Of a stretch of DNA of 64,000 bases, positions 43,423-61,427 are shown piece after piece. The DNA comes from Bacteroidales bacterium. GTDB lineage: Bacteria; Bacteroidota; Bacteroidia; Bacteroidales; JAFGXI01. Numbering within the stretch: the stretch's first letter is position 1; every line of letters starts with the position of its first letter. Below the pieces are notes generated by a model. The model saw nothing but the letters and a program-made list of their open reading frames with translations, did no database searches and had not been told where the DNA came from. A program made the position numbers and the translations under genes. The stretch lies in the NCBI GenBank assembly GCA_016936665.1, contig JAFGXI010000010.1:5868-69867 (forward strand), in the 5' to 3' direction.

Positions 43423-43749
43423 TCATTCCTGCGGTTTCTCTACTTTAGGTTCATCTGTAACTATTTCAGCCTCATAACCTAAATCCTTAAGGGCCTTTTT
43501 AAGTTTCTCGTCTGAATTTTTATCTGTTCGATAAGTTATTCTTACTTTTTGTTCATCTAAATCGGTCGTAACTGCTTTTACGCCTTTCTCAAAAGCCATA
43601 TTGTGCTCTATCTTTTCTTGGCACGACTGACAGTGCATATTACAGGTAAAAGTTACCGTTTTGAACGTCTTTTCTATTTTTTCATCCTGTCCAAATAAAC
43701 TCCCAATTAAGCCTAATGAGAGCATTAAAATTATTATTATCTGTTTCAT
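43423..43749 (-). CDS. Secreted heavy-metal-associated (HMA) domain protein
   Basis: Signal peptide, then an HMA fold with the M-H-C-x-x-C metal site (TFTCNMHCQSCQEKIE). Confidence 0.8.
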   Translation of the reverse strand: MKQIIIILMLSLGLIGSLFGQDEKIEKTFKTVTFTCNMHCQSCQEKIEHNMAFEKGVKAVTTDLDEQKVRITYRTDKNSDEKLKKALKDLGYEAEIVTDEPKVEKPQE

Positions 43750-43750
43750 T

Positions 43751-44152
43751 TTATTTATTGTTTATATTTAATTGTTGATCGAATAACATAACGTGCGTAG
43801 ACCACCACTCGTACAAAAAGTCGATAATTTTTAACATTTGATGATAATTGCCTCTTTCAAATTCTGAGTTAAACACTGCAACTTCATAGATAAATCTCTG
43901 ATGATCGATCTTGTGCTCTTTAAAATTTAAATTTGGAATATCCTTTGCCAACTCTTCTTCCATCTTAAAATGATTTAAGCTATAATCTGTGAGCTCTGAT
44001 AGTAACTCCGAAAACTTCGAAAAACTACCTTTTTCATTGTAAACTTCAACCAATTGATTATATGTACATAAAAGCTTCTGATGGTCTCTATCTACATTTT
44101 TTATGTTGACATTGAATATTGGATCCCATTGTAATATTTGCCTTCTTTCCAT
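43751..44152 (-). CDS. Hemerythrin-like metal-binding protein (bacteriohemerythrin family)
   Basis: WDPIFNVNIKNVDRDHQKLL, HFKMEEE, HKIDHQRF and WWSTHVMLFDQQL match the His/Glu/Asp di-iron ligand pattern. Confidence 0.8.
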   Translation of the reverse strand: MERRQILQWDPIFNVNIKNVDRDHQKLLCTYNQLVEVYNEKGSFSKFSELLSELTDYSLNHFKMEEELAKDIPNLNFKEHKIDHQRFIYEVAVFNSEFERGNYHQMLKIIDFLYEWWSTHVMLFDQQLNINNK

Positions 44153-44161
44153 GATTTTTTT

Positions 44162-46345
44162 TTAATTTCTAATTGAATAACGTAAACCTATATATATTTT
44201 TCTTCCGTGGATAGGTCCCCACACTTGGGAAGCATCAAATGTGTTTGAATAAGGTTGATCCGGAGCAATGATTGGGTTTTCTTGTACATAATCGAACAGA
44301 TTTTCTGCACCCAAATATACACTCCACTTTCTAAAAAATTTTGTAATTTGAATGTTGGTAAGTGAATACACAGGGAAACGTTCATTTATGCCATCTCTGT
44401 AACCCGGCAAACGACCATCGCCATTGATTTGCATATTAATATCGAACTGCCATTTTTTTAAATTTGTGGCATAAGACAAAGCAACTAAGCCTTTAAATCG
44501 ATTCACCAAAGGCACTTCCAATAAATCGCCTCGATAACTTGTTTTAACATCGTTATATCGATAAGCAATTGTAGCATCGAGTCTTTTTATTATTTCGGCC
44601 TGCCATTCTATCTGAAACGCATTGGAGTAAGATGCTCCATCGAGGTTATAAACTTCAATTCGATTCAATTGCTCACGATCTACAACCAATTGATTTTGAA
44701 AATCTGTTCTAAAGAAATCGACAATAAAAGTCCATTCTTTTTCGAAAACATGCAGCTTTTTAACATAGCTCAAGCCATAGTTAATAGCACGTTCCATTCG
44801 AAAATCGTCAGCGATAGACATTCTTGCTCCATTAGCCAACAAATAAGGTTGCTCTACTAAAACATTTGCCGTTCTATATCCCATCCCCGCCGAAGCACGC
44901 AATGTGTTATGTTCATTAATTTGATATCGCAAATGCCAACGAGGCGTAGCAAAGAAACCATATCTATTGTGGTAATTCGCTCTTAAACCTAGCATCATAG
45001 TCAACCAATTGGATTTAAGATAAGTATATTCGAAATACGCTCCCGGAACATATTCTGTTCGTGTTGCAGACGAGTCGTTAAACCATTCTTGAACCTGATC
45101 GAATCGGTAATCTAAACCTGTTGAGAACTGATGGTTAGCATTATTAATGATACCCTCGTACAATAAAGCCCCAAATGCACTTTTTTCTTCAGCATTGTAC
45201 GCTTGTAGCCCATAAAACGATTCGTGCATATGATAACTTGCATTCGATAAGAAAGCCACAGAAAACAGAGGTTTCGAAGGAAAAACATAACCACCTTTGG
45301 CAAATACTTCTGCCCTGTTGGTATGTATCCCAATGCCATAAGGAGAAGTTATATTTATCGCTTGAGCTTTTTCAAAATCTACCTGACCTCCTATCCTATC
45401 TTCTTCTATAACAGAAGCTCCAAATTGAAAAATATAATCATCCGACTTATATTTCCAGCGATTAAAGATTTGCAATCTGTTAATCAACGGTTGATCTAAA
45501 AAAGAATCATGATTACGATCGTGTTTCATTTGGTTTTGATGCCAATGCACAGCCAATAAAGCGCTCCATTTTTTAGATAATTTTTTCGCTACCACAGCAT
45601 TTGCTTCATAGCCAAAAGCATCGTTGGCCACTAAGTTCAGCAATAAAGGATCGGCTTTATCAGGCTTTTTATATTCAGCATTAATCTGACCAGAAATTGA
45701 TTGAAATCCATTTTTAACGGACGATGCCCCTTTCGAAACCTGAATGCTTTCCATCCAAGGGCCGGGTATGTAAGTCAAACCAAAAGAGGATGCTAAACCT
45801 GACATCGATGGAATATTTTCGGTTTGTATTTGAACATATTTTCCGTCCAAACCTAGCATTTTAATTTGTTTAGATCCTGTCAACGCATCGGCATACGAAA
45901 CATCCACAGAAGCATTAGTTTCGAAACTTTCCGATAAATTGCAGCATGCCGCTCTGTGAAATGCTTCGCCACTAATATTTTGACTCAAATTTGGACTCAT
46001 TCTTTCAATGGTCGAAGCCGATTGACGCTCGCTTACAAGTACTTCTTTCATCAATTCTGATTCTTTAAGATTGACGTCCAATTTTGAAGATGCACTTACA
46101 GCAATGGAGTCGGTTTTATAGCCAACGTATGAAAACACTAATATTTGGCTCTCATTTATCCTTTCAATTTGATATTCTCCTTTTGCATCGCTGGTCGTTC
46201 CTATGCTTGTTCCCGACCAATAAATATTTACACCAACTAAGGGGTGTTGATGTTCGCCATGTTGCTCATAAACTTTACCGGAAATAGATTGTGCTTTTGT
46301 AAAATTAACGAACATCGAAGCAAACAAAATAATATATATCTTCAT
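44162..46345 (-). CDS. TonB-dependent receptor with N-terminal carboxypeptidase-regulatory-like domain
   Basis: Signal peptide MKIYIILFASMFVNFTKAQ from ATG 46343-46345. The CarboxypepD_reg segment (GKVYEQ...GVNIYWSGTSIGTTSDAKGEYQI) is followed by a plug and a long beta-barrel. Confidence 0.88.
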   Translation of the reverse strand: MKIYIILFASMFVNFTKAQSISGKVYEQHGEHQHPLVGVNIYWSGTSIGTTSDAKGEYQIERINESQILVFSYVGYKTDSIAVSASSKLDVNLKESELMKEVLVSERQSASTIERMSPNLSQNISGEAFHRAACCNLSESFETNASVDVSYADALTGSKQIKMLGLDGKYVQIQTENIPSMSGLASSFGLTYIPGPWMESIQVSKGASSVKNGFQSISGQINAEYKKPDKADPLLLNLVANDAFGYEANAVVAKKLSKKWSALLAVHWHQNQMKHDRNHDSFLDQPLINRLQIFNRWKYKSDDYIFQFGASVIEEDRIGGQVDFEKAQAINITSPYGIGIHTNRAEVFAKGGYVFPSKPLFSVAFLSNASYHMHESFYGLQAYNAEEKSAFGALLYEGIINNANHQFSTGLDYRFDQVQEWFNDSSATRTEYVPGAYFEYTYLKSNWLTMMLGLRANYHNRYGFFATPRWHLRYQINEHNTLRASAGMGYRTANVLVEQPYLLANGARMSIADDFRMERAINYGLSYVKKLHVFEKEWTFIVDFFRTDFQNQLVVDREQLNRIEVYNLDGASYSNAFQIEWQAEIIKRLDATIAYRYNDVKTSYRGDLLEVPLVNRFKGLVALSYATNLKKWQFDINMQINGDGRLPGYRDGINERFPVYSLTNIQITKFFRKWSVYLGAENLFDYVQENPIIAPDQPYSNTFDASQVWGPIHGRKIYIGLRYSIRN

Positions 46346-46504
46346 TTTATTATTTTTAAATAATGTCGAAAAAAAAGATGTGCTCATTTCTTTGAGTATT
46401 ATAAAATCATCCGACATTAATCGATTCGACAATTATCAAAATTTGCTTTGTTAATAAACCCAATAGAATATAAAGACAAAACAAAAACTTGATAGCTGAT
46501 AACT

Positions 46505-47148: not shown

Positions 47149-48771
47149 ATGAAAATCACCACTTTAACCTTTGCTTTAGCTTTAATGTTACTCACTGCTA
47201 AAGCGCAAACTGTGTACAATCAGTTTAAAGATGGCGTTGTTTATTTCAAAATTGAAAATGCAGCACATCTAAATTTACCTACTTATCATTACACTGTTCC
47301 CGATTTGAAGCTTTTCGAGAATTTTCCACAGTTAAAAAACATTATCGAAAACTGTCAAGTTAAACATTTGTATAAACCCTTTAAAACACAAAACGAAAGT
47401 GTGCAAAACATCTACAAAATTGAATTCTCAGATTTTGAAAAAGTAGACTATATTGTGAATACTCTAAAAACAATGAAAGATGTTGAGTTTGCAGAAAAAT
47501 CTCAACTTTTAAAATTATTTTCTACACCAAATGATCCATCGATATCAAATCAATGGTTTTTGACCAATATTCAAGCATACGAAGCGTGGGATTTAGCACA
47601 AGGCAATGCCAATGTGAAAAATGCAATTGTTGACGATGCCAGCAGGATAACTCATGAAGATTTAGCGGCCAATGTTTGGCATAACCCTAACGAAATTCCA
47701 GACAATGGAATCGATGACGATAATAATGGTTTTATTGACGATGTTAATGGTTGGGATGCTGCCGATACCGATAACGACCCTCTACCTCCTTCAGATTTAG
47801 GGTGGTTGGGAGAGCAAGCCTACACACATGGTACGCATTGTGCCGGTTTAGCGGCAGGTGTAACTAACAATGGTATTGGCATTGCATCGGTTAGCTACAA
47901 CGTTTCTTATATTCCTATTAAAACTGTTTCGGACGACTCGTTTTTTCCAATCGGTATTGAAGCTCCTGCAGAAGGTGTCGATTATGCAATAGCTGCCGGA
48001 GCCGATATTATCAGCATGTCGTTTGGAGGCGAAGACATCGCATCTTTTGGAACATTATCAACACTTATTGATGCTGCTGATGATTTAGGAAAAATTTGCG
48101 TTGCCGCTGCGGGTAATAATGGCGATGGTAGCGATCCTTTCAGCACCGAAAATGCAATTAATTATCCTGCAGGTCTCGAAAATGTTTTAGCTGTTGCCGC
48201 TTCCGATTCGGATGATAAAAAAACCTCATTTTCTCAGTTTGGCGATTGGATCGACATCATGTCTCCTGGAGCCTCAATGTACAGTACCTTAGCTCATAGT
48301 ACCCCATACGATAACATGGATGGCACTTCAATGGCTTGCCCCTTAACAGCCGGAGCTCTAGGCTTAATGAAATCGTATAAACCACAGGCCACAAAACAGC
48401 AATTGGTCGATTGTTTATTAAATGGGGCAGATAATGTTGACACCGAAAACACAGAGTATATTGGCAACATTGGGCACGGCCGATTAAACATTTATAATTC
48501 CTTAGTTTGTTTAGACCAAACAGTTGGGGTGCAAATTTTAAATAATCCAGATCAATTTAGAATATTTCCTAATCCGGCAAATGCTTCACTAACTGTTTCT
48601 TTAAATAAAAAAGCTGAAGTGGTTAAAATTTTAAACATTACAGGTCAAGTCGTTTATCAAACTAAAGTGAGTGGGTTAAATTTGAAACAGATTAACTTGA
48701 GTGCTTTTAAACAAGGTATTTACTTTGTTCAAATTGATAATGAGTGGACTAGAAAATTAATTATCGAATAA
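47149..48771 (+). CDS. S8 subtilisin-family serine peptidase with T9SS C-terminal sorting domain
   Basis: Signal peptide and catalytic motifs (D in IVDDAS, HGTHCAG, GTSMACP). The C-terminal ~80 aa are of the Por/T9SS type (FRIFPNPANASLTVSL ... GIYFVQIDNEWTRKLIIE). Confidence 0.9.
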   Translation: MKITTLTFALALMLLTAKAQTVYNQFKDGVVYFKIENAAHLNLPTYHYTVPDLKLFENFPQLKNIIENCQVKHLYKPFKTQNESVQNIYKIEFSDFEKVDYIVNTLKTMKDVEFAEKSQLLKLFSTPNDPSISNQWFLTNIQAYEAWDLAQGNANVKNAIVDDASRITHEDLAANVWHNPNEIPDNGIDDDNNGFIDDVNGWDAADTDNDPLPPSDLGWLGEQAYTHGTHCAGLAAGVTNNGIGIASVSYNVSYIPIKTVSDDSFFPIGIEAPAEGVDYAIAAGADIISMSFGGEDIASFGTLSTLIDAADDLGKICVAAAGNNGDGSDPFSTENAINYPAGLENVLAVAASDSDDKKTSFSQFGDWIDIMSPGASMYSTLAHSTPYDNMDGTSMACPLTAGALGLMKSYKPQATKQQLVDCLLNGADNVDTENTEYIGNIGHGRLNIYNSLVCLDQTVGVQILNNPDQFRIFPNPANASLTVSLNKKAEVVKILNITGQVVYQTKVSGLNLKQINLSAFKQGIYFVQIDNEWTRKLIIE

Positions 48772-49864: not shown

Positions 49865-49900
49865 AAAAGCCTTCTGCAATTTGCAAAAGGCCAATCTTTT
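49865..49900. terminator. Imperfect bidirectional hairpin between convergent genes
   Basis: GCCTTcTGCA-ATT-TGCAaAAGGC, flanked by an A-run and a T-run. Confidence 0.5.
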
Positions 49901-49913
49901 AATTATTTATTTT

Positions 49914-50900
49914 TTACTTTCCGCTATCGGAAAAATATTTCATAAACTGAGCTCGCTCTAACATCATTGGATTTTTAATGTTTTTCTGATTCAATTTGCC
50001 TCTATATTCTTCAATTGAGGCATACTTTTTTTCATCCATCCATTGCTCTAATGCATGAACTGTTTCGGTAATATGAGAAGCTCCTTTTTCATAAATAGCA
50101 GAAACCATTTGTGTAGTAGTTGCCCCTACCAATAAATTACTAATCACTTCTTTAGCAGAGTGAACACCTGTGCTAGCCGATAAATCACAAGTAACTTTAC
50201 CGCTTAAAATGCTCATCCAGCGTAAAGTATTAGCGTTATCTTCTGCCTTTGAAAAGATTGGTGCAGCAACAATTTTTTCATGTTCGATATCTACAGCCGG
50301 GCTGTAAAATTTATTAAATAAAGTGATGCCTTTAATTCCCGTTTTTGACAATTCTAACATAAAATTGGCTAAACCAGAAAAATAACTGCTTAATTTAATT
50401 GCAACAGGAATTTTCACCACATTTAAAAGCTCTTTTACAATTCTTAAATAATTCTCCTCTAATGTTCTACCGTCTTTATCAAAGTCGGCAGGCATAACAA
50501 AAAGATTAACTTCTAGTGCATCGGCACCAGCTTGTTCTACATTTTTTGCAAAAGAAACCCATTCTGCATTGTCGAAACAATTAATACTAGCAATTACAGG
50601 AATGCTTACCGAGGATTTGGTATTTTTTATTAGCTGAATGTATTGATCTACAGAGTGCTTTTTCAAATAAAAACCTAAGTAATTTTCGATATGATCGAAG
50701 GTCCCTGACATGTTATTAACGCGCTCTGCATCAATATCCATCAAAATTTGCTCTTCAAATAAAGACTTTAAAATGATAGCTCCCGCACCGGCATCAGCCC
50801 ATTCTTTGTTTTTATCGGCATGATTAGTTAACTCCGAACTACCAACAATAATGGGATTTTTAAGCGTTAATCCTAAATATTTTGTTGTTAAATTAGCCAT
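49914..50900 (-). CDS. Dihydroorotate dehydrogenase-like FMN (TIM-barrel) protein lacking the canonical catalytic Cys/Ser loop; last gene of the Mrp-MBX-like operon
   Basis: DHOD class-1-like N-terminus (LGLTLKNPIIVGSSELT, IPVIASIN, GADALEVN). Where DHOD/DPD have N-L-S-C-P-N/H this protein reads NLFVMPAD. It has no C-terminal ferredoxin domain. Confidence 0.78.
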   Translation of the reverse strand: MANLTTKYLGLTLKNPIIVGSSELTNHADKNKEWADAGAGAIILKSLFEEQILMDIDAERVNNMSGTFDHIENYLGFYLKKHSVDQYIQLIKNTKSSVSIPVIASINCFDNAEWVSFAKNVEQAGADALEVNLFVMPADFDKDGRTLEENYLRIVKELLNVVKIPVAIKLSSYFSGLANFMLELSKTGIKGITLFNKFYSPAVDIEHEKIVAAPIFSKAEDNANTLRWMSILSGKVTCDLSASTGVHSAKEVISNLLVGATTTQMVSAIYEKGASHITETVHALEQWMDEKKYASIEEYRGKLNQKNIKNPMMLERAQFMKYFSDSGK

Positions 50901-50968
50901 TTTATATGTTTTTTAAGATTAAAAAAAGTTTGGCTAAGTTAAACTAGCTCAGCCAAACAATATAAAAA

Positions 50969-52774
50969 TTAACGTCCTTGATTTAAGAATTTATCAATAC
51001 CCATAGCTGCTCTGTGTCCGTTAGCAATACCATGAATTACGTCTGGTCCTTCAATAATATCGCCCCCTACAAATAACCAAGGTAAACCTTTAGCTTGGAA
51101 GTCTGCATCTACAACAATTCGACCTCTGTTATTAAATTCTATTTTAGATTTAATTTCTTCTGTTAAATAAGACAAGTCCATTCCTTGACCTATTGATTCG
51201 ATAACCATATCGCCTTCGAAAACGCGTTCTTCAGCTTGATCAAATTTTGGATTAAACATGCCTTTCTCATCGAATATCGATAGACATTTCCAAACTTTAA
51301 GCCCTTTAACTTTACCATCTTCGATGATGATTTCCTGAGGGCCGTATCCCGGAATTATAGAACAACCTTCTTCTCTTGCTTCAACAATTTCTTCTCTATC
51401 GGCAGGCATGTGCTCTTCGTCTTCTAGCGAAGTTGTAATCACATTAACTTTACCGAACTGTTGCATTTGAAGACGAGCCATAGAGCGAGTAATGTCCATT
51501 GCCACATTACCACCACCAATTACAACCACTCTTTCTTTTACAGGCACTGGTTTTTCGAGTACGATATCACGAAGTAAATCGACCGATTGGTAAACATTTT
51601 CGTTATCTGAACCGGGAATACGGGTCGAACGACCTAAATGTAAACCTGTGCCAGAGAATACTGCATCGTAATCTTTTTCTAACTGTTCCAGCGTGATGTC
51701 TGTTCCTATATTAACATTGTATTTAAATTCAACACCCAAGGCGGCGATATAATCCACATCTTTATCGATTTGGTCGTATGGTAAACGATATTCAGGAATA
51801 CCGTAACGCATCATACCCCCGGCTTTTGGTAATTTTTCGAAAATAGTACAAGAATACCCCAACAAGGCTAAATAATGTGCAGCTGATAATCCCGATGGAC
51901 CAGAACCAATGATAGCTATTTTTTTACCATTTTTAGCTAAATCGCCAGTACCTAGAATATCTTTATATTTATCGGTATCAGCCGGAATCTGATCGGCAAT
52001 ATAACGTTTTAACCAGCGGATCGATAATGCATCTCCAGTATGACCAACCGAACAAACATCTTCACATTTGTGCGTACAAATACGTCCACAAATTTCTGGA
52101 AGTGGATTAGTTTCGTATAACACACGCATACCTTCTTCCATATCGTCGTTACGAACTGCTTTAATGTATTCTGGAATACCCATATGCGCAGGACATGTTG
52201 CCGTACAAATACCGCAAGACACACATCTATCGGCCTCTTGCTGTGCCTGTTCTTTTGAATACCCTTTTACAAATTCTATAAATGAATCGCTACGCTCATC
52301 GGCATGTAATTCGCCCATATGAACGCGTTCTTTTCCGTAGAAGTTGTAATTTGGAACTGGCTTTCTCCAACCATCTTCTTTTTCGTACCAATCTTTAGGA
52401 TCAACTCCCGGAATAAATCTGAAGTTATCGGCATCGGTATCTACCCAAGTATATTCATTGGTTAATCGAAGCGAATCGGTTGTACAAATATCAACACAAA
52501 GCGCACACCAGCAACAACGACCATAATCAATCTTTGGTCTTAAGCCGCTGTCGCCACTTTTCGTGTCGATACCATCTACAGGTACCAAATCGATGGCTTG
52601 ATTTTCGCAAATTGCTTCACAAGTTCCACAACCAATACAAACATTGATGTCGTTATCGTGAAACCCCCTATATCTTGGTGCCGCTTCTCTTCCAATAGGG
52701 TTTTTAATGGTAACAGGATCTTTTAATACACCAGACCAAGCTGTAAACGGCGTAAATATATCTTTAATATTCAT
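50969..52774 (-). CDS. Fusion protein: NuoI/MbxN-like 2x[4Fe-4S] ferredoxin domain plus GltD/SudA/NfnB-like NAD(P)H-FAD oxidoreductase
   Basis: The N-terminal ~125 aa carry RYRGFH..CIGCGTCEAIC and CCWCALCVDIC (NuoI type). Next come the GltD-type Fe-S motifs CVSCGICTATCP and ICGRICTHKCEDVC. The FAD dinucleotide fold is KIAIIGSGPSGLSAA and the NAD(P)H fold is RVVVIGGGNVAMD. The C-terminus reads GGDIIEGPDVIHGIANGHRAA. Confidence 0.82.
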   Translation of the reverse strand: MNIKDIFTPFTAWSGVLKDPVTIKNPIGREAAPRYRGFHDNDINVCIGCGTCEAICENQAIDLVPVDGIDTKSGDSGLRPKIDYGRCCWCALCVDICTTDSLRLTNEYTWVDTDADNFRFIPGVDPKDWYEKEDGWRKPVPNYNFYGKERVHMGELHADERSDSFIEFVKGYSKEQAQQEADRCVSCGICTATCPAHMGIPEYIKAVRNDDMEEGMRVLYETNPLPEICGRICTHKCEDVCSVGHTGDALSIRWLKRYIADQIPADTDKYKDILGTGDLAKNGKKIAIIGSGPSGLSAAHYLALLGYSCTIFEKLPKAGGMMRYGIPEYRLPYDQIDKDVDYIAALGVEFKYNVNIGTDITLEQLEKDYDAVFSGTGLHLGRSTRIPGSDNENVYQSVDLLRDIVLEKPVPVKERVVVIGGGNVAMDITRSMARLQMQQFGKVNVITTSLEDEEHMPADREEIVEAREEGCSIIPGYGPQEIIIEDGKVKGLKVWKCLSIFDEKGMFNPKFDQAEERVFEGDMVIESIGQGMDLSYLTEEIKSKIEFNNRGRIVVDADFQAKGLPWLFVGGDIIEGPDVIHGIANGHRAAMGIDKFLNQGR

Positions 52775-52801
52775 CTTCTTAAATTTATTATTTATGAATT
52801 A

Positions 52802-53158
52802 TTATTTATTATTGTTCAAGACCATTGTTTTTCTGGATGCTATAAAAATGGATGTTAATGCCTTTGCTTCAGTTATTAATTCCTTAAGCAATTCTGGTTT
52901 AACTAATGCTTCATCTTTTATAAACTCTAACCAAAAAATACTTTCATCGGCCTCTTTAACGATATTTAATTTTGAAATAAAACTTTTCCCTGATTGTGCG
53001 ACACAAGCAACGCTATAAATATCTGCTACTGACGTTGAACATCTTATTATTTGACCACTGATATGTTTTCCTAAAGTATTTGTCGGCAAAGACAAACCCA
53101 ATTTAACACATCGGTGTGCAAATTCTTTTGTTCTCTCTATCAGTTCTTCTTTATTCAT
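52802..53158 (-). CDS. Four-helix-bundle protein (formerly 23S rRNA intervening-sequence protein family) inserted inside the operon
   Basis: 118 aa. The family pattern is ERTKEFAHRCVKL ... GKHISGQIIRCSTSVA ... SFISKLNIVKEADESIFWLEFI ... EAKALTSIFIASRKT. Confidence 0.8.
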   Translation of the reverse strand: MNKEELIERTKEFAHRCVKLGLSLPTNTLGKHISGQIIRCSTSVADIYSVACVAQSGKSFISKLNIVKEADESIFWLEFIKDEALVKPELLKELITEAKALTSIFIASRKTMVLNNNK

Positions 53159-53189: not shown

Positions 53190-54386
53190 TTAGCGTTCGA
53201 TTTCCGGAGGACAAGTTTGTAATGAAACCATTAAGGCATGTATATCAGCAATATTAGTATTGACCAATAAATCTTCTAACAATGCTACTCCATGCGTATA
53301 GCTTGGCCCTCTTAAATTAACTCTTCGAGGTTTATCAGAACCATCTGTAACGTAGTACATTCCGTACTCTCCACGGCCACTCTCTATTCTAACATAAGTT
53401 TCGCCTTTAGGGATACGCCAGTTCAAAACGTTAGGCATTTGCGCTCTGATATCGCCTTTTTCCGGCATTTTAGCCATAATCTGACGAATAAGATCTACCG
53501 TTTGAATGAGTTCTTGCCAGCGTACAAAAGTACGTGCATATATATCGCCCTCCTCAGCTGTAGGAGGATCGAAATCTAATTGATCGTAAAATAAATATGG
53601 ATTATCTTTTCGCACATCTCGTTTTACACCAGAAGCTCGAGCGGTTGTTCCAACCACACCATATTTATCAACCATTTCCTTAGTTACAATGCCTTGGCCA
53701 ATCGAACGTTTTTTGAAAATAGCATTATCAAACATCAATTTTTTAATTCTAACAATAAAATCATCGATGTCTTTTAAATTATCTTCCATACGTGCTTTAA
53801 AACCTTCTGGTAATAAACCTCTAACACCGCCAGGAATAATATACATATGATACACACGAGCACCCGTTAATTCCTCGAAACGATCTAAAATAAGGTCTCT
53901 TAAATAAACACCCCATTGCACACCAATACCTAAAGAATAAGTCCCCGCTTGACCAGGTACTCCTCTAAGTAAACCTTGGAGACGCGCCATCTCTAAAGAT
54001 AACATTCTTAACCATTTAGCCATATCTGGTATTTGTTTATCATAACCAGAAAGCTCTTCGGTACAAGCTGCAATTAAATATTCGTTGGTGTCGGGCTCGG
54101 CCACACACATACGAATACTTGTAGGGAAGCCTTGAACGAACAAACGACGCTCAATTAATTTTTCGAAACCTCTATGTAAGTAACCCACATGCGTTTTACC
54201 TTCAACAATCTCATCACCATTTAGCGTTAGTTCCATTGCCATATTACCGGTAACTCCGGGGTGATTAGGCCCTAACCATAATTTTGTGTATTGGTGTGAT
54301 GACAAATCTATATTTAAACTGCCATCCTCATTGACAGAAGGATATTTACTTCTATCAGGTTTGAATCCAAAAAAATTATTCAACAT
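53190..54386 (-). CDS. NuoD / group-4 hydrogenase large-subunit homolog of MbxL/MbsL type (no complete NiFe site)
   Basis: LGPNHPG..., GYLHRGFEKLIE and the length match the Complex1_49kDa fold. The NiFe CxxC positions read RMCVAE and QTCPPEIER-stop. Confidence 0.85.
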   Translation of the reverse strand: MLNNFFGFKPDRSKYPSVNEDGSLNIDLSSHQYTKLWLGPNHPGVTGNMAMELTLNGDEIVEGKTHVGYLHRGFEKLIERRLFVQGFPTSIRMCVAEPDTNEYLIAACTEELSGYDKQIPDMAKWLRMLSLEMARLQGLLRGVPGQAGTYSLGIGVQWGVYLRDLILDRFEELTGARVYHMYIIPGGVRGLLPEGFKARMEDNLKDIDDFIVRIKKLMFDNAIFKKRSIGQGIVTKEMVDKYGVVGTTARASGVKRDVRKDNPYLFYDQLDFDPPTAEEGDIYARTFVRWQELIQTVDLIRQIMAKMPEKGDIRAQMPNVLNWRIPKGETYVRIESGRGEYGMYYVTDGSDKPRRVNLRGPSYTHGVALLEDLLVNTNIADIHALMVSLQTCPPEIER

Positions 54387-54948
54387 TTTTATTCTTTTTA
54401 GCAGTTACAGGTTGATTAGGATATAATTTCTCTCTCATATAAGTTGCAGGGTCGTTTGTTGTACGGCCACCACGTGGGAAGTATGTTTTTTCTGCATACT
54501 CATGAGTATCGAAATCTCGTAGCATATGAGGCTTATCTGTCCATCCTTCGAGTACGAAATTCTCTTCGACTCTCGGACTGCCCGGAAATTGGATTCCAAA
54601 GGCTTCTCTAATCTCACGTTGGTAAGTCCAAACCTGCTTCCAAAGATGATGTGCAGAAGTCATAGTAGGATTTTCTCTTTCGATCATCACTCGAAGTGCC
54701 ACATCACATCTTTGTTGAGGGTTATTAAGGATGTACGTTAATTGGAATTTGTTGTCTTCAATCCAATCGGCGCAGCTCATCATTACAAAATGAGCAAATC
54801 CTTCGTAGTCTCTCATGTAAGTAATGGCTTCGATAACCAATTCCTTACTTATGGTTGCAAACACCATGTTATCGCGCTGATAAATGATATCTTGCAAAGC
54901 ATATTTTGTATTTAATTTTTCAACTAATTCTTTCATCTTTACATCCAT
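54376..54948 (-). CDS. NuoC / MbxK-like 30-kDa subunit
   Basis: 190 aa, located between the NuoB-like and NuoD-like genes. Complex1_30kDa-like core (HLWKQVWTYQREIREAFGIQFPGSP). Its stop overlaps the NuoD-like start by 11 nt. Confidence 0.78.
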   Translation of the reverse strand: MDVKMKELVEKLNTKYALQDIIYQRDNMVFATISKELVIEAITYMRDYEGFAHFVMMSCADWIEDNKFQLTYILNNPQQRCDVALRVMIERENPTMTSAHHLWKQVWTYQREIREAFGIQFPGSPRVEENFVLEGWTDKPHMLRDFDTHEYAEKTYFPRGGRTTNDPATYMREKLYPNQPVTAKKNKNVE

Positions 54949-54951
54949 TAT

Positions 54952-55674
54952 TTACCAGTTATAATCAGGCATATTCCAATCTTTGATAATCTTTTTTTGA
55001 TTTGCCTTATACTCATCAAAGTTTCTAGCATACTCATTTGCTTTTTCTGCTTTTCCTTCTTTGATAAGCTCTTTTAATTTTCCGAAACCTGCTAATAGTG
55101 CTTCAGGACGTGGCATACAACCTGCAATGTAAACATCGACAGGAATGTATTTGTCTAATCGATTAATCGTGCTATAACTATCGTAATACATTCCGCCGTT
55201 AATGGTACAGCTACCAAGCGCTATCACATATTTAGGAGAAGGCATTTGCTCGTAACTACGAATCACCCTTTTCAAGGTTTTTACCGATAAGTATCCTGAA
55301 ATAATGAAAGCATTCGATTGACGAGGCGTAGGACGCATTTGAACGCCAAAGCGAAACATATCATAACGAGGAGTCACCAAAGGAGGAATTTCAATACTTC
55401 CACATCCTGTTCCAAAACCTAATACCCAGATACTCTCTGATCTTGCCCAGTTTAAAAATTTCTCAACAATGGCATTTTTTGGCTTTTCTTCTTTTGGACG
55501 CTCACCACTAAAATAGTCGTAAAGCGGGTTAATTTTTATGATAGAACCATCGGGTGCTACCACTTCTCTAACTTCATCTTCAGGTCTAACAAATGTTTTT
55601 TCGCTATTCTTTGCATTTTGCTCAGAACGCTCTAACATTTCTTGTACCTTGCTATTTATATTTAGTTCAGACAT
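54952..55674 (-). CDS. NuoB / MbxJ-like Fe-S subunit with only three cysteines
   Basis: Oxidored_q6 pattern: GFGTGCGSIE, RPTPRQSNAFIISG, LGSCTINGGMYY, PVDVYIAGCMPRPEAL. It has a ~70-aa N-terminal extension. Confidence 0.85.
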   Translation of the reverse strand: MSELNINSKVQEMLERSEQNAKNSEKTFVRPEDEVREVVAPDGSIIKINPLYDYFSGERPKEEKPKNAIVEKFLNWARSESIWVLGFGTGCGSIEIPPLVTPRYDMFRFGVQMRPTPRQSNAFIISGYLSVKTLKRVIRSYEQMPSPKYVIALGSCTINGGMYYDSYSTINRLDKYIPVDVYIAGCMPRPEALLAGFGKLKELIKEGKAEKANEYARNFDEYKANQKKIIKDWNMPDYNW

Positions 55675-55692: not shown

Positions 55693-56601
55693 TTAGAAAC
55701 TGTACATTAAAATGGCAATGAAACCTAATAGTAGCGGAATCTTGAAAAACCAAGCTACCGATTGTTCTATTCTGAAACGAGGGAAAACCATACCTACGAA
55801 CACAGCATAGAAATATATTAGGAAACTTTTAATGATTAATTCAAACCAATTCGTAGCACCACCAAAAACCAAATTCATAAATAAAATGGTTTCCATTACG
55901 CCAAGAATATTTCCGCTAGTCATTAATACACCTAGATATGTTCCATGGTACTCTGTAGGAGGTCCAATTGGAATTTCGTTTGGTGCTTTTACTAAGTTAA
56001 AAGGAGAATATCCGAAAGCTCCTAATGCAGATAACATAATTGCGGCAGAGGCTACAGGATTAGTAAAAAATGACCAATGAAGAAAACCGCCTTGTTGAGC
56101 AGCAACGATTTCTGAAATTGATAAGGTTTGGTACTGAATAGCTAAAGCAATAATACCCATAGTCATTGGCAATTCAACAGCTGCGTGTTGTGCCAAACCT
56201 CTGGAAATACCGATAGCCGAGTGAGGTTGTCCGCCTTCACCGGCACCTAAAGCCATACCTAACATTCCAAATAATTGAAAGTATAAGATGAGAACCAAAT
56301 CCCCTTCAAATGAGAAGTTCATCCAAGCTTCTTTTCCGAATAAAATTGGCATAAATAAAAATAAACCAACAGCACCGGAAAAACGGAAAACTGGTCCTAA
56401 ATAGAACATTACACCATGTGTTAAAGTTGTTCGAACAGCAATATTTTTAATTAAATCGATCCATGGCTGACGAAAAGGAACGCCGTGACGTCCGGCCATG
56501 CGAGCTCCAATTTTTCTGAAAGTAACTCGCATTAACATTCCCCAGTTTAACACAATCATTAAACCGAGAAATGTATAAGCTATTTTTACGTATATATTCA
56601 T
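55693..56601 (-). CDS. NuoH / MbxM-like membrane subunit
   Basis: A polytopic membrane protein with the NuoH-type N-terminal loop RKIGARMAGRHGVPFRQPWIDLIKNI. The ATG at 56599-56601 is preferred over the TTG at 56616. Confidence 0.8.
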   Translation of the reverse strand: MNIYVKIAYTFLGLMIVLNWGMLMRVTFRKIGARMAGRHGVPFRQPWIDLIKNIAVRTTLTHGVMFYLGPVFRFSGAVGLFLFMPILFGKEAWMNFSFEGDLVLILYFQLFGMLGMALGAGEGGQPHSAIGISRGLAQHAAVELPMTMGIIALAIQYQTLSISEIVAAQQGGFLHWSFFTNPVASAAIMLSALGAFGYSPFNLVKAPNEIPIGPPTEYHGTYLGVLMTSGNILGVMETILFMNLVFGGATNWFELIIKSFLIYFYAVFVGMVFPRFRIEQSVAWFFKIPLLLGFIAILMYSF

Positions 56602-56605
56602 GTTA

Positions 56606-59600
56606 TTATCCTCCAATAATTACAAGGTAAGTGACTAATACAAACAAAACGAGGTGAAGCATATATGCTTGTCCATTTCCGCTGTAGATACGACGGGTAA
56701 AGCCTGCTGTATCGTGTAGCATTTCTGTGACTTTATCCCAGAATTTTTCGACTAATGGTATCGTAGCTGGCCAAACAGCCTTGTAGAAACCGGCAAACAC
56801 ATTCCATGCAATGTGCGTTGTTTCTGGTCTATCGGGTCTTTCACCAGAAAATACAATATCAAATTGTTTAAGTTTATGAGCCTTTCTAGTAGAAATAGCT
56901 AGGAATGCAAAAGCAATTGCAAATACACCAACAACAGTAATAAAGACTTTGGTACCACTCCAGTAACCCAACGCTGTACTTGCACTACCAGCAACCCAAT
57001 TCACTTGTCCATTAGGGAAGTATGGTGCTAATATCTCTCCAAGAGGTTGTAATACCCACTCAGGCTTAACAGAGAATACCATGATTCCCATAATTAAAAT
57101 ATAAATCGGAATTGCAAACCAAATAGAAATATCTTTAACATTTCGATGATTATCTTTTAACTGCCCCAAGAAGATGGTGTGAATTAATCGCCACAAGTAC
57201 AAGAAGGCAATACCTCCGGCAAAGAAAACGATTATCCCTTGGAAGTACCATCCTTTATCTAAAACAGCGTTATAGAATAACCACTTACCTGCAAAACCAG
57301 ATAATGGTGGCACTCCAGAAAGTGCAATAATACCAATTAGTACTGCAATAAATGCAAATGGCATTCTTGAGATTAGTCCTCCCATTTTATACATATCGTG
57401 AGTGCCCACTCTTAGTACAACTGCTCCAATCGTTAAGAAGAGGATTGCTTTGTACATAAAGTGATTAATAGAATAGGTAAAAGCTGTTAACCAACCTAAA
57501 TGTGTCATAATGGCTAAAGCAAACACTATATATCCTAACTGACCGATAGAAGAGTATGCTAACAAACGTTTTGCATCTTCTTGGAAAACAGCCATTAAGT
57601 TACCAACTAAAGCGGTAATAGCACCTACCCAACCTAAAGTATAAGCTAAGCCCGAGAATTGATTATCGGCAGCCCCCATACCAATTAATGCGAGGACTAA
57701 ACCAAATACACCGGCTTTAAGTAAGATCGCAGAAACCATCGGAGAAACATCAGATTCAGCTTCGCCGTGAGCACCAGGCAACCAAATATGCAAGCCTACA
57801 GAAGCTGTTTTAGTTAAGAAGCCAGCGATTAATAAACCATAAGCCCACTGTGGTAAATAAGTAATATGATTAATAATATCTAAGTCGGAACTTATTTGAC
57901 TTACTTGAGCCATTCCGAAAGCTGCTAATAATGCATAAGCTCCTCCAATTGAAAACAACATGTAGCTCAAACCATGTGGCATAGAGCGTTTACCTCGAAT
58001 AATTAAGAAATACGAACCGGCTGTCATTAATTCCCAACCATAAAAGAACTCCAAAGTTGTGTTAGCTTCGATAATTCCAGTAAGACCGGCATACATTAAA
58101 ATAGCTACTGGATAAAAACCGGAACGAGTTCCCTTATATGCGTAACCAGCAATTAATGCTAAAATTCCACCAACCATGAATATCACTTCGAAGATCAACC
58201 TCAAATTATCTAAACTTGGATAGACTGTGTAGAAATAATATGCCATTCCGGCAATAGCTAAAGTGTTCTTTATAAAAATTGGTAAGAAATCTAAAGCTAA
58301 TAACACGGCAACAAATAAGAATGGAATAAAATTAATTCCTGAACCAATTTCAGAAAGTTGAGCTGTGTAATAACCTATGCCATATAAACTTAAAGCAGCG
58401 ATCCAAACAGGAATAATTTTTGACCATTCAATTTTAACCGGTTCGATATGGTCGTTTTCGGCTTTAATAGCGTAGCCTAACCAACGGAATAAATAAACAG
58501 CTTCCATCATTGAACCAAACAAAATGGCAACAACCCATGCTATATTACCAGTTGCTGTTAAGTCCATTACCAAAGTCCATTTTGCGAAGAAAGATGGAAA
58601 TGGAGGAAATCCGATTAAAGCAAAAACAAAAGTTCCCATCAAGAATAAGAAAAATGGATGCTTACGAACAACCGACCAACCTTTTAATCCTTTCGATTTA
58701 ATAATTCCAGATAGCCAAAACAATCCGGCTTTTGCCAAATAATGAGAGATTAAAATTCCAAACGCAATGTAAATGGTATTTTCTCCTAAAATATCTTTAA
58801 ATCCAATAATTAGGGTTAATAAACCAAGCTGACCTATTGATGAGTACCCAAGCATACGACGTGTATTTTCTTGTTTGATACCTAAAAGGTTGCTTCCTAC
58901 AAAAGTTATTGCTCCAAGTAAGGAGATATAATAATTCCACTCAGGACCGGCAATTGCCATCAATTTATATAAAACATATAATGAAGCTGATGCTGATGCT
59001 CCAGAGATTACCGCCGATAAACCGGCATCGGAACCTTCGTAAACATCAAGCCCCCAACCATTAGCAGGAAAAGGCTTTAACTCCAAGATAACAGCCATCA
59101 TTATTAAGAAGATCGCTATTGAACCGCCTTTTACTAAATGTAAGTTTGATGTAATTAAGTCATCGATATTTAATGAGCCCACAAAGTAATACGCAAAAAT
59201 AACTCCGATAAGTAAGAAGCTAGAAATAACACTGGTTGCTAATATATATTTGAATCCGGCACCCATCGAGCGAGTACCACTTTCCAATAAAATTAAACCA
59301 GCAATTGAGATACTCGCTATTTCCATGAAAACAAATAGGTTGAAAATATCACGAGTCATAATCATAACGTTCAAGCCCATCAATAGAATTAGATATACTA
59401 CTTGAGCATTTGATCCTCTCTCCTTCAGACTGTTAAACATATAAATTCCGCCGACTAAGCCTATCGCATTGACCATTAAAGAGAAGAATGCCTCAAATGG
59501 ACCCATTAATAAGTTAATCGACAAAGGAGGCTGAAAACCTGCTGTAAATATATATTCGGGCAATTGATTACCAGAGTAAAAACCGGCAAACCACTGGAAC

Positions 59601-59731
59601 GAAATAAAAGTCATAAACGCAATGGCTGTTAGCACTAATCCTCCGGTAAAATTTCTACCCAATTTATTCAATACACCAATGGCGAATCCTACGCCTAGAG
59701 CTGTGGCTACAATGTAAATAGGTGTTACCAT
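56606..59731 (-). CDS. Double antiporter-like subunit: two NuoL/M/N-MrpD (Proton_antipo_M) modules fused in one 1041-aa protein (MbxH-MbxH' equivalent)
   Basis: There are two separate Proton_antipo_M-like cores. The first lies around NLFVFMEIASISIAGLIL...YILATSVISSFLL. The second lies around WLPGAHGEAESDVSPMVSAILLKAGVFGL...LAYSSIGQLGYI, and LGYSSIGQLGLL also occurs in the first half. Confidence 0.85.
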   Translation of the reverse strand: MVTPIYIVATALGVGFAIGVLNKLGRNFTGGLVLTAIAFMTFISFQWFAGFYSGNQLPEYIFTAGFQPPLSINLLMGPFEAFFSLMVNAIGLVGGIYMFNSLKERGSNAQVVYLILLMGLNVMIMTRDIFNLFVFMEIASISIAGLILLESGTRSMGAGFKYILATSVISSFLLIGVIFAYYFVGSLNIDDLITSNLHLVKGGSIAIFLIMMAVILELKPFPANGWGLDVYEGSDAGLSAVISGASASASLYVLYKLMAIAGPEWNYYISLLGAITFVGSNLLGIKQENTRRMLGYSSIGQLGLLTLIIGFKDILGENTIYIAFGILISHYLAKAGLFWLSGIIKSKGLKGWSVVRKHPFFLFLMGTFVFALIGFPPFPSFFAKWTLVMDLTATGNIAWVVAILFGSMMEAVYLFRWLGYAIKAENDHIEPVKIEWSKIIPVWIAALSLYGIGYYTAQLSEIGSGINFIPFLFVAVLLALDFLPIFIKNTLAIAGMAYYFYTVYPSLDNLRLIFEVIFMVGGILALIAGYAYKGTRSGFYPVAILMYAGLTGIIEANTTLEFFYGWELMTAGSYFLIIRGKRSMPHGLSYMLFSIGGAYALLAAFGMAQVSQISSDLDIINHITYLPQWAYGLLIAGFLTKTASVGLHIWLPGAHGEAESDVSPMVSAILLKAGVFGLVLALIGMGAADNQFSGLAYTLGWVGAITALVGNLMAVFQEDAKRLLAYSSIGQLGYIVFALAIMTHLGWLTAFTYSINHFMYKAILFLTIGAVVLRVGTHDMYKMGGLISRMPFAFIAVLIGIIALSGVPPLSGFAGKWLFYNAVLDKGWYFQGIIVFFAGGIAFLYLWRLIHTIFLGQLKDNHRNVKDISIWFAIPIYILIMGIMVFSVKPEWVLQPLGEILAPYFPNGQVNWVAGSASTALGYWSGTKVFITVVGVFAIAFAFLAISTRKAHKLKQFDIVFSGERPDRPETTHIAWNVFAGFYKAVWPATIPLVEKFWDKVTEMLHDTAGFTRRIYSGNGQAYMLHLVLFVLVTYLVIIGG

Positions 59732-60105
59732 TTTAGATCGTTAAATTTGTTGATTTCTAATGATTTCTTAGCTTTATAAAGCTTCATAGCATAAGCCAAC
59801 ATTAATGCTGTAATACCAAAACCGATAACAATGGCTGTTAAAACCAAAGCTTGAGGAACTGGATCTACAATTTTATCTGCTACATTATAATTTCCTTCAG
59901 TAGCAATGGTTGCATCAATAATTGGTGCTGTTTTTCCTTTAACATAGCCTAAACTCACAATTAATAGATTAATACCTGTATTCAAGATTGAAAAACCGAT
60001 AATAATTTTAATAATATTTTTTTGAGTCAAGACTCCCCAAAAGCCTACAATAATTAGCAAAAAGCCAATTATCAAGCCGATATTTCCCAGATTTATAAAT
60101 TCCAT
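59725..60105 (-). CDS. MrpC/MnhC / NuoK-like small membrane subunit (MbxG equivalent)
   Basis: 126 aa with three TM helices and an MnhC-like tail (VDPVPQALVLTAIVIGFGITALMLA). Confidence 0.8.
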   Translation of the reverse strand: MEFINLGNIGLIIGFLLIIVGFWGVLTQKNIIKIIIGFSILNTGINLLIVSLGYVKGKTAPIIDATIATEGNYNVADKIVDPVPQALVLTAIVIGFGITALMLAYAMKLYKAKKSLEINKFNDLKW

Positions 60106-60106
60106 T

Positions 60107-60808
60107 TTATAACTCTTTTTGTGATTTTTGATACTTGTTGAGGATATTAGAAATCTCTGCTCCTACTTTTAACCCAACAAAACTGTATATAATAGGTATA
60201 GCACCTGCACTAAATAATTCGCCAAACTTACCCAAGCCAATAATTTTATTGTCGAGGAAACCTCCGGCTAATAAAATACCTAATATCCCAATTATTACAA
60301 ATGAAACCCCTGAAATACTCTCTACCCAGTGAATTACATTGTAATTTAATTTGATGTTTGGATTGGCTAATATCATTAAAGCAACACCCGTTGCGATAAT
60401 CGCTCCACCTTGGAAGCCTCCTCCAGGAGTTAAGTGACCATTTATGAACACATAAATTCCAAACAAGAAAATTACAGGAATAAGAATCTTTGATGCCGTT
60501 TCCAACAACTCAGAGGTATCTCTATGTTCGATGGTTTTTTCAAAATCCTCATCTTTAAGTTTTAAGAAGAATGCGATAATAGATGCTGTAAGGAATAAAA
60601 TAGTTACCTCACCAAGCGTATCGAAGCCCCTGTATGTTACAACTACAGCAGTAACTAAATTAGCGGCACCAACCTCTTCTGCACCTTTAGTTGCGAAATG
60701 CTCAGAAATTCCCGATAAAGAATCTCTAAGTTCGTATCCGTCGTACAAGCCGTAAAATAAATAGGCCATTACGAGCAATACTAAGGTCATTAATGTATTT
60801 TTAAGCAT
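60107..60808 (-). CDS. MnhB-domain membrane subunit (MbhE/MbhF-MrpB equivalent)
   Basis: Contains NLVTAVVVTYRGFDTLGEVTILF and GHLTPGGGFQGGAIIATG, both signatures of the MnhB family. Confidence 0.8.
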   Translation of the reverse strand: MLKNTLMTLVLLVMAYLFYGLYDGYELRDSLSGISEHFATKGAEEVGAANLVTAVVVTYRGFDTLGEVTILFLTASIIAFFLKLKDEDFEKTIEHRDTSELLETASKILIPVIFLFGIYVFINGHLTPGGGFQGGAIIATGVALMILANPNIKLNYNVIHWVESISGVSFVIIGILGILLAGGFLDNKIIGLGKFGELFSAGAIPIIYSFVGLKVGAEISNILNKYQKSQKEL

Positions 60809-61058
60809 TGGATCTTTTTATTTTGTTAAGTACATAAAAGAAAATCAAAGTCGACAATCCGCTACCAATAGAGGCTTCTGTCATAGCAACATCGGGAGCC
60901 GACATTAAAATGTACAAGACCGATGCAAATAATGACACAACTCCGGCAGCAATAACCGCAACCGAAAGTTTCTTATTCAGCATTGCTACAAAAGACAAAG
61001 CAAGACTTACAATGCCAAGTACAATTGCAATGATTATATAGAGTAACTCGCTATTCAT
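60801..61058 (-). CDS. MbhD-like small membrane subunit
   Basis: 85 aa with three TM helices and the APDVAMTEASIGSGLST motif typical of the MbhD / MrpA C-terminal region. Confidence 0.72.
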   Translation of the reverse strand: MNSELLYIIIAIVLGIVSLALSFVAMLNKKLSVAVIAAGVVSLFASVLYILMSAPDVAMTEASIGSGLSTLIFFYVLNKIKRSNA

Positions 61059-61425: not shown

Positions 61426-61427
61426 AT

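Follow-up and report, generated by a model that had tools for sequence, protein, structure and literature searches.

In the membrane complex MBS of Pyrococcus furiosus, the proximal iron-sulfur (Fe-S) cluster is held only by C28, C93 and C123 of subunit MbsJ, on a loop three residues shorter than that of MBH; sulfane sulfur is proposed to react at the unique free Fe of this cluster, and mutation has shown J-C25, L-C85 and L-C385 to be dispensable (PMC7684303). In bacteria, a GltD-related N subunit was described by Degli Esposti in 2015 for the mbx-like operons of Thermotoga and proteobacteria (PMC4758237). The present analysis concerns a protein of that kind, encoded on a 64,000-nucleotide stretch (64 kb) of contig JAFGXI010000010.1 from a Bacteroidales bacterium (the whole stretch is called the window below), in which a NuoI/MbxN-like ferredoxin domain and a GltD/NfnB-like NAD(P)H-FAD module form one polypeptide within a Mrp-Mbx-type operon. 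Bacterial MbxN-GltD fusions were reportedly noted by Schut et al. in 2013 as well (FEMS Microbiol Rev).

Resting on the observed domain content, gene order, conservation, co-occurrence and active-site signatures, the fusion protein is probably the N subunit (that is, MbsN or MbxN) of a Mrp-Mbx/MBS-type complex with a built-in NAD(P)H dehydrogenase, and this complex would likely reduce sulfane sulfur. The architecture, pointed out in the preliminary description of this DNA, is already known, both as the NCBIfam family PRK13984 and from the 2015 account (PMC4758237), and the protein of the window is an ordinary, correctly assembled member. With the window, the family gains a Bacteroidota representative whose H and H′ pump genes are fused, whose operon has an extra four-helix-bundle gene inserted, and whose last gene codes for a protein related to dihydroorotate dehydrogenase (DHOD); literature searches on Mbx in Bacteroidota, Ignavibacteria or Sedimenticola, and on Mbx together with a DHOD-like protein, turned up nothing specific. 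The interest lies with the family as a whole, rather than with this instance.

A NuoI-like domain and a GltD-type module in one reading frame

The open reading frame (ORF) of the fusion runs in a single frame on the minus strand, from ATG to stop, over 601 codons. Its features are as follows.

50969–52774, minus strand: fusion gene, 601 aa, consisting of an MbxN/NuoI-like domain, a linker and a GltD/NfnB-like NAD(P)H-FAD-2x[4Fe-4S] module
52400–52774, minus strand: residues 1–125, NuoI/MbsN-like 2x[4Fe-4S] domain (6u8y_N 3.8e-21; TIGR01971 1.2e-21, below cutoff; 8 Cys invariant), with the motifs RYRGFH (residues 34–39), CIGCGTCEAIC (46–56) and CCWCALCVDIC (87–97)
52289–52399, minus strand: residues 126–162, conserved linker (invariant residues in 34 homologues; same in independent contigs)
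51986–52288, minus strand: residues 163–263, Fer4_20 GltD-type N-terminal domain with two [4Fe-4S] clusters (PF14691 8.6e-30; NfnI-L/NfnB alignment; 8 Cys invariant), with the cluster motifs CVSCGICTATCP (residues 184–195) and CGRICTHKCEDVC (229–241)
51032–51922, minus strand: residues 285–581, FAD and NAD(P)H dinucleotide-binding domains (PF07992 1.6e-22; alignment to 4ylf_B), with IAIIGSGPSGLSAA in the FAD fold (residues 286–299) and VVVIGGGNVAMD in the second dinucleotide fold (416–427)
51422–51436, minus strand: residues 447–451, TTSLE in place of the YRR of NfnB (alignment to 4ylf_B)

Pfam, NCBIfam and solved-structure matches agree on the domain order that had been claimed. In Pfam, Fer4_7 (residues 46–100; 2e-8) is followed by Fer4_20 (163–263) and Pyr_redox_2 (285–581), with the NuoI-type cluster ligands C46/49/52/56 and C87/90/93/97 provided by two CxxCxxCxxxC motifs. 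Among solved structures, residues 9–145 find their best match in P. furiosus MbsN (6u8y_N residues 23–160; E-value as listed), ahead of the NuoI/TYKY chains of complex I at ~1e-9, and residues 148–599 align end to end, through both cluster motifs and both dinucleotide folds, with 5jca_L (NfnI-L; 4.5e-74) and 4ylf_B (NfnB; 2.2e-73). An MbxN-like N-terminus and a GltD/NfnB-like remainder, as proposed earlier, are both upheld by these matches. Profile models of NuoI hit the N-terminal domain at 1e-21 to 1e-24; because these scores fall below the curated cutoffs, the domain is, as judged from the profiles, NuoI-like without being a NuoI equivalog. The NCBIfam model NF010590 (PRK13984, 'putative oxidoreductase') covers residues 2–599 (model positions 7–608 of 611) with 878.1 bits, its curated equivalog cutoff being 946 bits, and the AegA model matches residues 45–598; on these scores the fusion would be a diverged branch with the PRK13984 architecture. 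Small plus-strand ORFs that overlap the gene (52068–52322 and 52707–53018) were treated as noise.

The fusion is real, far beyond chance, and the covalent link claimed earlier has been corroborated from several sides. Contigs of the source run in Logan, made by a second assembler, cover 49900–52526 with 0 differences and 0 gaps and so reproduce the junction (nt 52205–52402) and its reading frame exactly, and a second Logan contig continues from 52497. This source run, a freshwater metagenome, is the only public run with the sequence. Apparent 'joints' in the contig comparison are short fragments from related organisms (90–95% identity), not rearrangements. In the protein database, >120 distinct full-length homologue clusters (among them Bacteroidales, Marinilabiliales, Tenuifilum and Williamwhitmania) have 70–87% identity, 597–603 residues and the same Pfam content; many linker residues are the same in all 34 homologues compared, such as K, W, G, K-P, Y, Y, R and M within residues 127–153. 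When 1.84 billion cluster representatives were searched, about 12 further 50%-identity clusters matched end to end, down to 38–43% identity, and in 16 homologue sequences with identity down to 38% all 16 of the 16 cluster cysteines are invariant. An assembly or frameshift artefact is effectively excluded by the second assembler, the same-length homologues, the conserved linker and the invariant cysteines.

The dinucleotide fold also bears on the electron donor. In NfnB, Y310, R311 and R312 bind the 2′-phosphate of NADPH, and DsrL variants that lack YRR use NADH (PMC7596348). T447, T448 and E451 of the fusion, with a two-residue insertion, align with these three residues; because YRR is replaced by TT..E, the fusion probably prefers NADH. 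The T-x-L-E pattern is common to most family members and YRR is kept in a minority, so that the family appears to be split into probable NADH and NADPH users. Those keeping YRR (L074, L075 and L080 among the related loci described below, and clusters P0123, P0127, P0129 and P0138) are without an insertion of ~7 residues before the motif.

The operon in the window and in related genomes

The fusion gene is the 12th in a tightly packed minus-strand operon (62175 to 49914) of 13 complex genes plus one unrelated insert. The genes and flanking features, besides the fusion, are as follows.

59725–62175, minus strand: Mrp module (Pfam MNHE, MrpF_PhaF, PhaG_MnhG_YufB, MbhD, MnhB+MbhE, Oxidored_q2)
61687–62175, minus strand: MnhE
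61428–61718, minus strand: MrpF
61051–61425, minus strand: MnhG
60801–61058, minus strand: MbhD-like
60107–60808, minus strand: MbhE/MnhB
59725–60105, minus strand: NuoK/MrpC-like
56606–59731, minus strand: fused MbsH+MbsH′, two MrpD/NuoN-like antiporter modules in one 1041-aa ORF (PF00361 in two stretches, 9.1e-81; NCBIfam halves 5–462 and 460–1036)
55693–56616, minus strand: MbsM/NuoH-like membrane anchor, 307 aa (PF00146 1.1e-40)
54952–55674, minus strand: MbsJ/NuoB-like subunit, 240 aa, with GFGTGCGSIE, GSCTINGG and AGCMPRP (6u8y_J 4e-63)
54376–54948, minus strand: MbsK/NuoC-like subunit, 190 aa (PF00329 1.3e-20)
53190–54386, minus strand: MbsL/NuoD-like subunit, 398 aa (6u8y_L 1.3e-84; alignment to 2fug_4)
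52802–53158, minus strand: four-helix-bundle protein, 118 aa, 23S rRNA IVS protein family (TIGR02436 6.7e-15; PF05635)
49914–50900, minus strand: DHOD-like FMN protein, 328 aa, last operon gene (NF005741, PRK07565, 386.8 bits vs cutoff 303)
49868–49892, minus strand: intrinsic-terminator-like hairpin (11-bp stem, 5 GC pairs) and T-run, TTTTTATT
62492–63841, plus strand: nqrA, first gene of Na+-NQR, divergent from the operon

Gene order is collinear with mbsABCDEGHH′MJKLN of P. furiosus. Because the fusion gene holds the mbsN position and no other NuoI-like gene was found in the operon (Pfam and NCBIfam on the operon proteins), the fusion is assigned as MbxN; a NuoEFG N-module is likewise missing from the operon. 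A terminator-like hairpin was seen after the last gene only, directly past the DHOD-like stop codon, and the operon probably ends there.

The position of the fusion gene is shared by its relatives. One genome per GTDB species was scanned, which gave at least 600 candidate matches, of which 594 were confirmed as relatives, so that the fusion is encoded in at least 594 species genomes from >10 phyla. Synteny was compared in the best 80 of these relatives (L001–L080) by tblastn with the 14 operon proteins of the window. In all 79 loci with upstream DNA (79/79), the fusion lies directly 3′ of MrpE-F-G-B-B-C-DD-NuoH-B-C-D, with gene order and strand unchanged, and the 80th (L039) ends at a contig end upstream of the fusion. 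Co-occurrence with Mrp/Nuo-like genes in related genomes, which the preliminary description had named as a test of its proposal, is hence seen in 79 of the 80. Hosts of the best 80 include Bacteroidota and Chlorobiota-labelled metagenome-assembled genomes (MAGs); Spirochaetes, with Treponema- and Leptospira-labelled MAGs; Cloacimonadota, Neomarinimicrobiota, Fermentibacteraceae and Aminicenantes; Alpha-, Beta- and Gammaproteobacteria (Tropicimonas, Thiothrix, Sedimenticola, Thiodiazotropha, Thiosymbion and Gallionella); and Halanaerobiales, Anaerolineales, Bipolaricaulota and Kosmotogaceae, the last with a fusion homologue of 49% identity (L079). Sulfur-cycling hosts are numerous (Thiothrix, Sedimenticola, Thiodiazotropha, Halanaerobium and Kosmotogaceae).

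The four-helix-bundle gene sits between the NuoD-like and fusion genes and has 31% GC. It was found in 1 of the 80 related loci, L004, at the same site and with 72% identity, although identity is no more than 60% for the NuoD-like neighbour there. This scattered occurrence suggests a sporadic and possibly mobile insertion, and its product is probably not part of the complex.

Since nqrA starts divergently and adjoins the operon, the Mrp-Mbx-type operon and Na+-NQR, that is, two NADH-linked ion pumps, may share a regulatory region. Elsewhere near the operon, GldB and a type-9-secretion sorting domain are encoded; with the names of the homologues, they point to an uncultivated member of the Bacteroidota with a GC content of 36%. 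Unrelated to the fusion are HMA-domain and hemerythrin-domain proteins that adjoin a TonB-dependent receptor (43423–44152 and 44162–46432, both minus strand), and a subtilase sorted by the type-9 secretion system (47149–48771).

Active site, acceptor and energetics

Among solved structures, the NuoD-like subunit is closest to MbsL, with the 49-kDa subunits of complex I at ~1e-54 and MbhL at 8.7e-32, while the NuoB-like subunit aligns ungapped with MbsJ through the cluster loop. It keeps the equivalents of MbsJ C28, C93 and C123, with Gly at the C25 position, and three-cysteine coordination of its proximal cluster is predicted. The NuoD-like protein keeps C85 and C385 of MbsL, and the quinone ligands H38 and Y87 of Nqo4 are replaced in it by T and V, respectively (alignment to 2fug_4); both are likewise absent in MBS (PMC7684303). 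Because the three-cysteine loop is kept, the quinone ligands are missing and MbsL and MbsJ are the closest relatives, the complex is, by its active-site signatures, MBS/MBX-like, neither complex I nor hydrogenase. A true [NiFe] hydrogenase (MBH-type) was rejected, as 2 of the 4 NiFe cysteines remain and MbhL is distant.

Across related loci, the three ligand cysteines of the proximal cluster are invariant (72 loci). Over 72–75 loci, most have Gly at the C25 position, and Cys occupies it solely in the type found in Halanaerobiales, Spirochaetes, Cloacimonadota, Anaerolineales, Bipolaricaulota and Kosmotogaceae; C85 and C385 of the L subunit vary. Because the ligands are invariant while C25, C85 and C385 vary, the family keeps exactly what MBS needs and lets drift exactly what MBS can spare. 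Within Bacteroidota, two active-site flavours occur: that of the window, 'IRMCVAEPD ... QTCPPEIER', keeps both vestigial NiFe cysteines, and the other, 'CRxAVPEPD ... HTYPPEIER', keeps neither; Proteobacteria keep the first and not the second.

With assembly, electron path, donor and nucleotide preference, acceptor and direction of flow all taken as predictions, the complex might work as follows. A hydride from NAD(P)H would pass to the FAD of the GltD-like module, from which single electrons would travel through the two GltD-type [4Fe-4S] clusters to the two NuoI-type clusters and on to the three-cysteine proximal cluster of the NuoB-like subunit. This cluster would sit at a chamber to which the NuoD-like and NuoH-like subunits also contribute; chemistry there would drive (or, in reverse, be driven by) the movement of ions through the Mrp module and the fused double MrpD-like pump. 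The flavoprotein module would take the place of free ferredoxin in archaeal MBH and MBS. That NAD(P)H is hard-wired into the Fe-S chain, as proposed earlier, is the best inference. By analogy with P. furiosus MBS, the chamber substrate would be sulfane sulfur (polysulfide), which is the most likely acceptor.

The potential of polysulfide is about −260 to −270 mV, and those of NADH and menaquinone are −320 and −74 mV, respectively. NADH to polysulfide would thus release about 10–12 kJ per 2 e−. MBH conserves energy on 12 kJ per 2 e− (PMC8165549). Because the reaction yields only about the energy span of MBH, energy conservation from it is conceivable but marginal, and it should be readily reversible, with the reverse direction suiting many of the sulfur-oxidising hosts. 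In T. maritima, mbx is induced 4.4-fold by S0 (PMC9431562); this induction and the bias towards sulfur-cycling hosts are consistent with a sulfur link, although they are no proof of it.

The same energetics bear on a second reading, in which the complex is a NAD(P)H:quinone oxidoreductase, that is, a complex-I-like pump with a GltD module in place of NuoEFG that reduces menaquinone in the NuoB/D/H chamber. The drop from NADH to menaquinone makes this reaction energetically far easier, many hosts respire with quinones, several being aerobes, Na+-NQR is encoded next door in the window, and the chamber of MBS matches that of complex I in size and openness (PMC7684303). However, both head-group ligands are missing, the NuoB-like loop is of the shortened MBS type with three cysteines rather than the tandem-Cys N2 motif, and the NuoD-like subunit is much nearer to MbsL than to any quinone-reducing homologue. 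Quinone reduction is considered unlikely on balance.

A third reading follows the classical MBX annotation and has the complex work as a ferredoxin:NAD(P)+ oxidoreductase: electrons from reduced ferredoxin would enter at the NuoI-type clusters and pass to NAD(P)+ from the GltD FAD, with the flavoprotein as exit. Such a function was proposed for GltD-bearing mbx-like operons (PMC4758237) and is assumed for the Mbx of Mesotoga; GltD-like modules are reversible, as in DsrL (PMC7596348), and electron flow from ferredoxin to NAD+ is exergonic. Yet this path bypasses the NuoB/D/H chamber, the site of redox/ion coupling in all characterised relatives (PMC7684303, PMC8165549), and leaves the conserved catalytic-type three-cysteine cluster with no role. 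Moreover, MBX of P. furiosus has itself been re-assigned to sulfane reduction (PMC9431562, PMC7684303), and the GltD module probably covers the MbsN surface near the distal cluster where ferredoxin docks. We regard this direction as distinctly improbable.

Several points weigh against an NAD(P)H-fed, sulfane-reducing N subunit, which remains the preferred interpretation. The acceptor is deduced solely from active-site likeness to one archaeal enzyme, and electrons passing from NAD(P)H to polysulfide give little energy for two MrpD-like pumps plus the Mrp module. The organism has a quinone-linked respiratory enzyme, Na+-NQR, whose genes begin next door. Some hosts are aerobes or microaerophiles not known as sulfur reducers (Tropicimonas, Sinisalibacter, Gallionella and Leptospira-like MAGs), and they fit a quinone or other acceptor, or reverse operation, at least as well. 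The fusion scores 878 bits, under the PRK13984 cutoff, and no biochemical characterisation is known to us for any member of the fusion family. In the metatranscriptome from the study that produced the source run, nothing matched the sequence, and no evidence of expression was found. In an AlphaFold2 single-chain model (34 sequences, 70–87% identity), the mean predicted local distance difference test (pLDDT) was 64.8 and fell to <50 for residues 1–170, which are unusable, so that the model gives no geometry between the domains or between the clusters of the two modules.

If the mechanism holds, the family would be a widespread bacterial link of the NAD(P)H pool to an ancient, quinone-independent MBS-type ion pump, present in the at least 594 species genomes above, and would represent another answer to the need for an 'N-module' as complex I evolved. 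It would allow possible energy conservation from NADH-dependent sulfur reduction or, if reversed, could let sulfur oxidisers produce NAD(P)H at the expense of an ion gradient. Carriers are available in culture (among them Prolixibacter denitrificans DSM 27267, Draconibacterium, Tenuifilum, Thermotoga maritima, Thiothrix caldifontis and Halanaerobium saccharolyticum), and the family is therefore directly testable.

The DHOD-like protein and comparison with known systems

The gene that follows the fusion varies by lineage. Of the 66 related loci with ≥1.1 kb of DNA past the fusion, 24 have a DHOD-like gene next, and nearly every one of these carries a Bacteroidota or Bacteroidales label. Among the related loci, a rubrerythrin-like gene follows in 31 (Proteobacteria, Kosmotogaceae, Cloacimonadota and others) and a CBS-pair gene in 13, and in cluster P0121 a rubrerythrin-like part is fused to the C-terminus of the fusion protein. 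Examples of the varying accessory gene lie at 11797–12291 in L043, at 11789–12259 in L014 and at 12–626 in L069. In L069 and L070 (Treponema and Leptospira), the DHOD-like gene is just upstream of mrpE, not after the fusion. The DHOD-like FMN protein is thus a lineage-specific accessory, not core to the mechanism.

DHO_dh is the single significant Pfam domain of the DHOD-like protein of the window. Because it has only 2 Cys in all, it is, by its sequence, devoid of an Fe-S cluster. Aligned with DHODA of L. lactis (a weak alignment, E 1e-7), it has V for C130, the catalytic cysteine of class-1 DHODs, and P for N132. A real dihydroorotate or dihydropyrimidine dehydrogenase is unlikely, as Val stands opposite the catalytic Cys and, of the NCBIfam models, the DHOD-like one is passed but not PyrD or PreA.

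The preliminary description had envisaged two exits from the GltD flavin and, as a hypothesis, electron bifurcation or confurcation, with the FAD sending some electrons to the NuoI-type clusters and others to the DHOD-like FMN protein. In its favour, two bifurcating proteins, NfnB and NfnI-L, are among the closest solved relatives of the C-terminal part, and the DHOD-like gene is transcribed together with the others, the sole terminator lying beyond it. A DHOD-like gene also accompanies the operon in two phyla, though not at the same place, as it follows the fusion in Bacteroidota and precedes mrpE in L069 and L070; together, the fusion and the DHOD-like protein make up the domain set of dihydropyrimidine dehydrogenase (DPD)/PreTA in permuted order. 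Against it, no DHOD-like gene lies beside the fusion in 42 of the 66 loci, so that this protein is not core to the mechanism, and it has neither an Fe-S cluster nor, apparently, the catalytic Cys. No NfnA/PyrK-like [2Fe-2S] flavoprotein (FNR-like FAD plus [2Fe-2S]), which supplies the second electron path in true Nfn bifurcation, was found in the operon or its flanks in the 64-kb window, and non-bifurcating members show just as much homology to NfnB. In glutamate synthase (GltS) and DPD, which are non-bifurcating, electrons reach the second flavin (FMN) via a [4Fe-4S] chain, not directly from FAD (PMC8097209). The two exits and the bifurcating device have both lost ground on this evidence, and the device is now very improbable.

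A variant in which the DHOD-like protein does take part has it dock, in Bacteroidota and some Spirochaetes, on the fused N-GltD subunit, making a DPD-like branched Fe-S/flavin network that couples a soluble substrate, or bi- or confurcation, to the MBS-type pump. This is a speculative idea with a low chance of being right; if true, the docked protein would be a new kind of input or output module for the complex I superfamily.

The same domain inventory, a permuted DPD (8Fe ferredoxin domain, GltD-like and DHOD-like), might instead suggest a soluble enzyme of the DPD/PreTA kind, made up of the fusion and the DHOD-like protein and encoded next to the membrane complex without belonging to it; that a ferredoxin-GltD fusion can be soluble is known from AegA and YgfT. 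But the likeness of the N-terminal domain is to NuoI/MbsN in particular and extends to the RYRGFH segment before the clusters, the operon would be left with no N subunit, and the Mbx synteny is complete over >10 phyla, with the DHOD-like gene missing in most. We give this reading hardly any credence.

The N subunit with built-in NAD(P)H dehydrogenase, as favoured here, can be placed among the known systems. Its full-length architecture and its position after the NuoD-like gene are the same as in the GltD-bearing mbx-like operons and PRK13984, whereas the Bacteroidota operon ends with a DHOD-like gene and those of Thermotoga and proteobacteria with rubrerythrin (PMC4758237). Compared with complex I, the NuoB, C, D, H, I and K homologues and antiporter-like subunits are shared and NAD(P)H is the likely donor, but a GltD-type FAD module stands in place of NuoEFG, a full Mrp module is present, the NuoB-like subunit has a TGCG loop rather than CC (the tandem-Cys N2 motif), and H38 and Y87 are missing.

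Residues 148–599 resemble NfnB, NfnI-L (SudA), GltD and PreT from end to end (E about 1e-73); unlike NfnB, GltD and PreT, the fusion has no NfnA/SudB, GltB or PreA-type Fe-S partner and carries an extra N-terminal NuoI-like domain, and unlike in NADPH-type NfnB, YRR is changed to TT..E. As in DsrL and AegA/YgfT, a GltD-like module is combined with an 8Fe ferredoxin domain as adaptor to a partner; however, the extra domain of DsrL is C-terminal and its partner is DsrAB, and the N-terminal domain of AegA is a generic ferredoxin, whereas that of the window is a NuoI/MbsN homologue of a membrane complex. Unlike in DPD/PreTA, the DHOD-like protein lacks the C-terminal 2x[4Fe-4S] domain and has V for C130, on the weak alignment given above.

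With MBS of P. furiosus, the operon shares the collinear 13-gene layout, the best PDB matches of the J, L and N subunits (4e-63, 1.3e-84 and 3.8e-21, respectively), a three-cysteine loop of the same length, C85 and C385 of the L subunit and the absence of quinone ligands. Unlike in MBS, MbsH and MbsH′ form one gene, J-C25 is Gly and the host is a mesophilic bacterium; MbsN is a free-standing, ferredoxin-fed protein of 208 residues, whereas the N subunit of the window carries a NAD(P)H-FAD module of ~450 residues.

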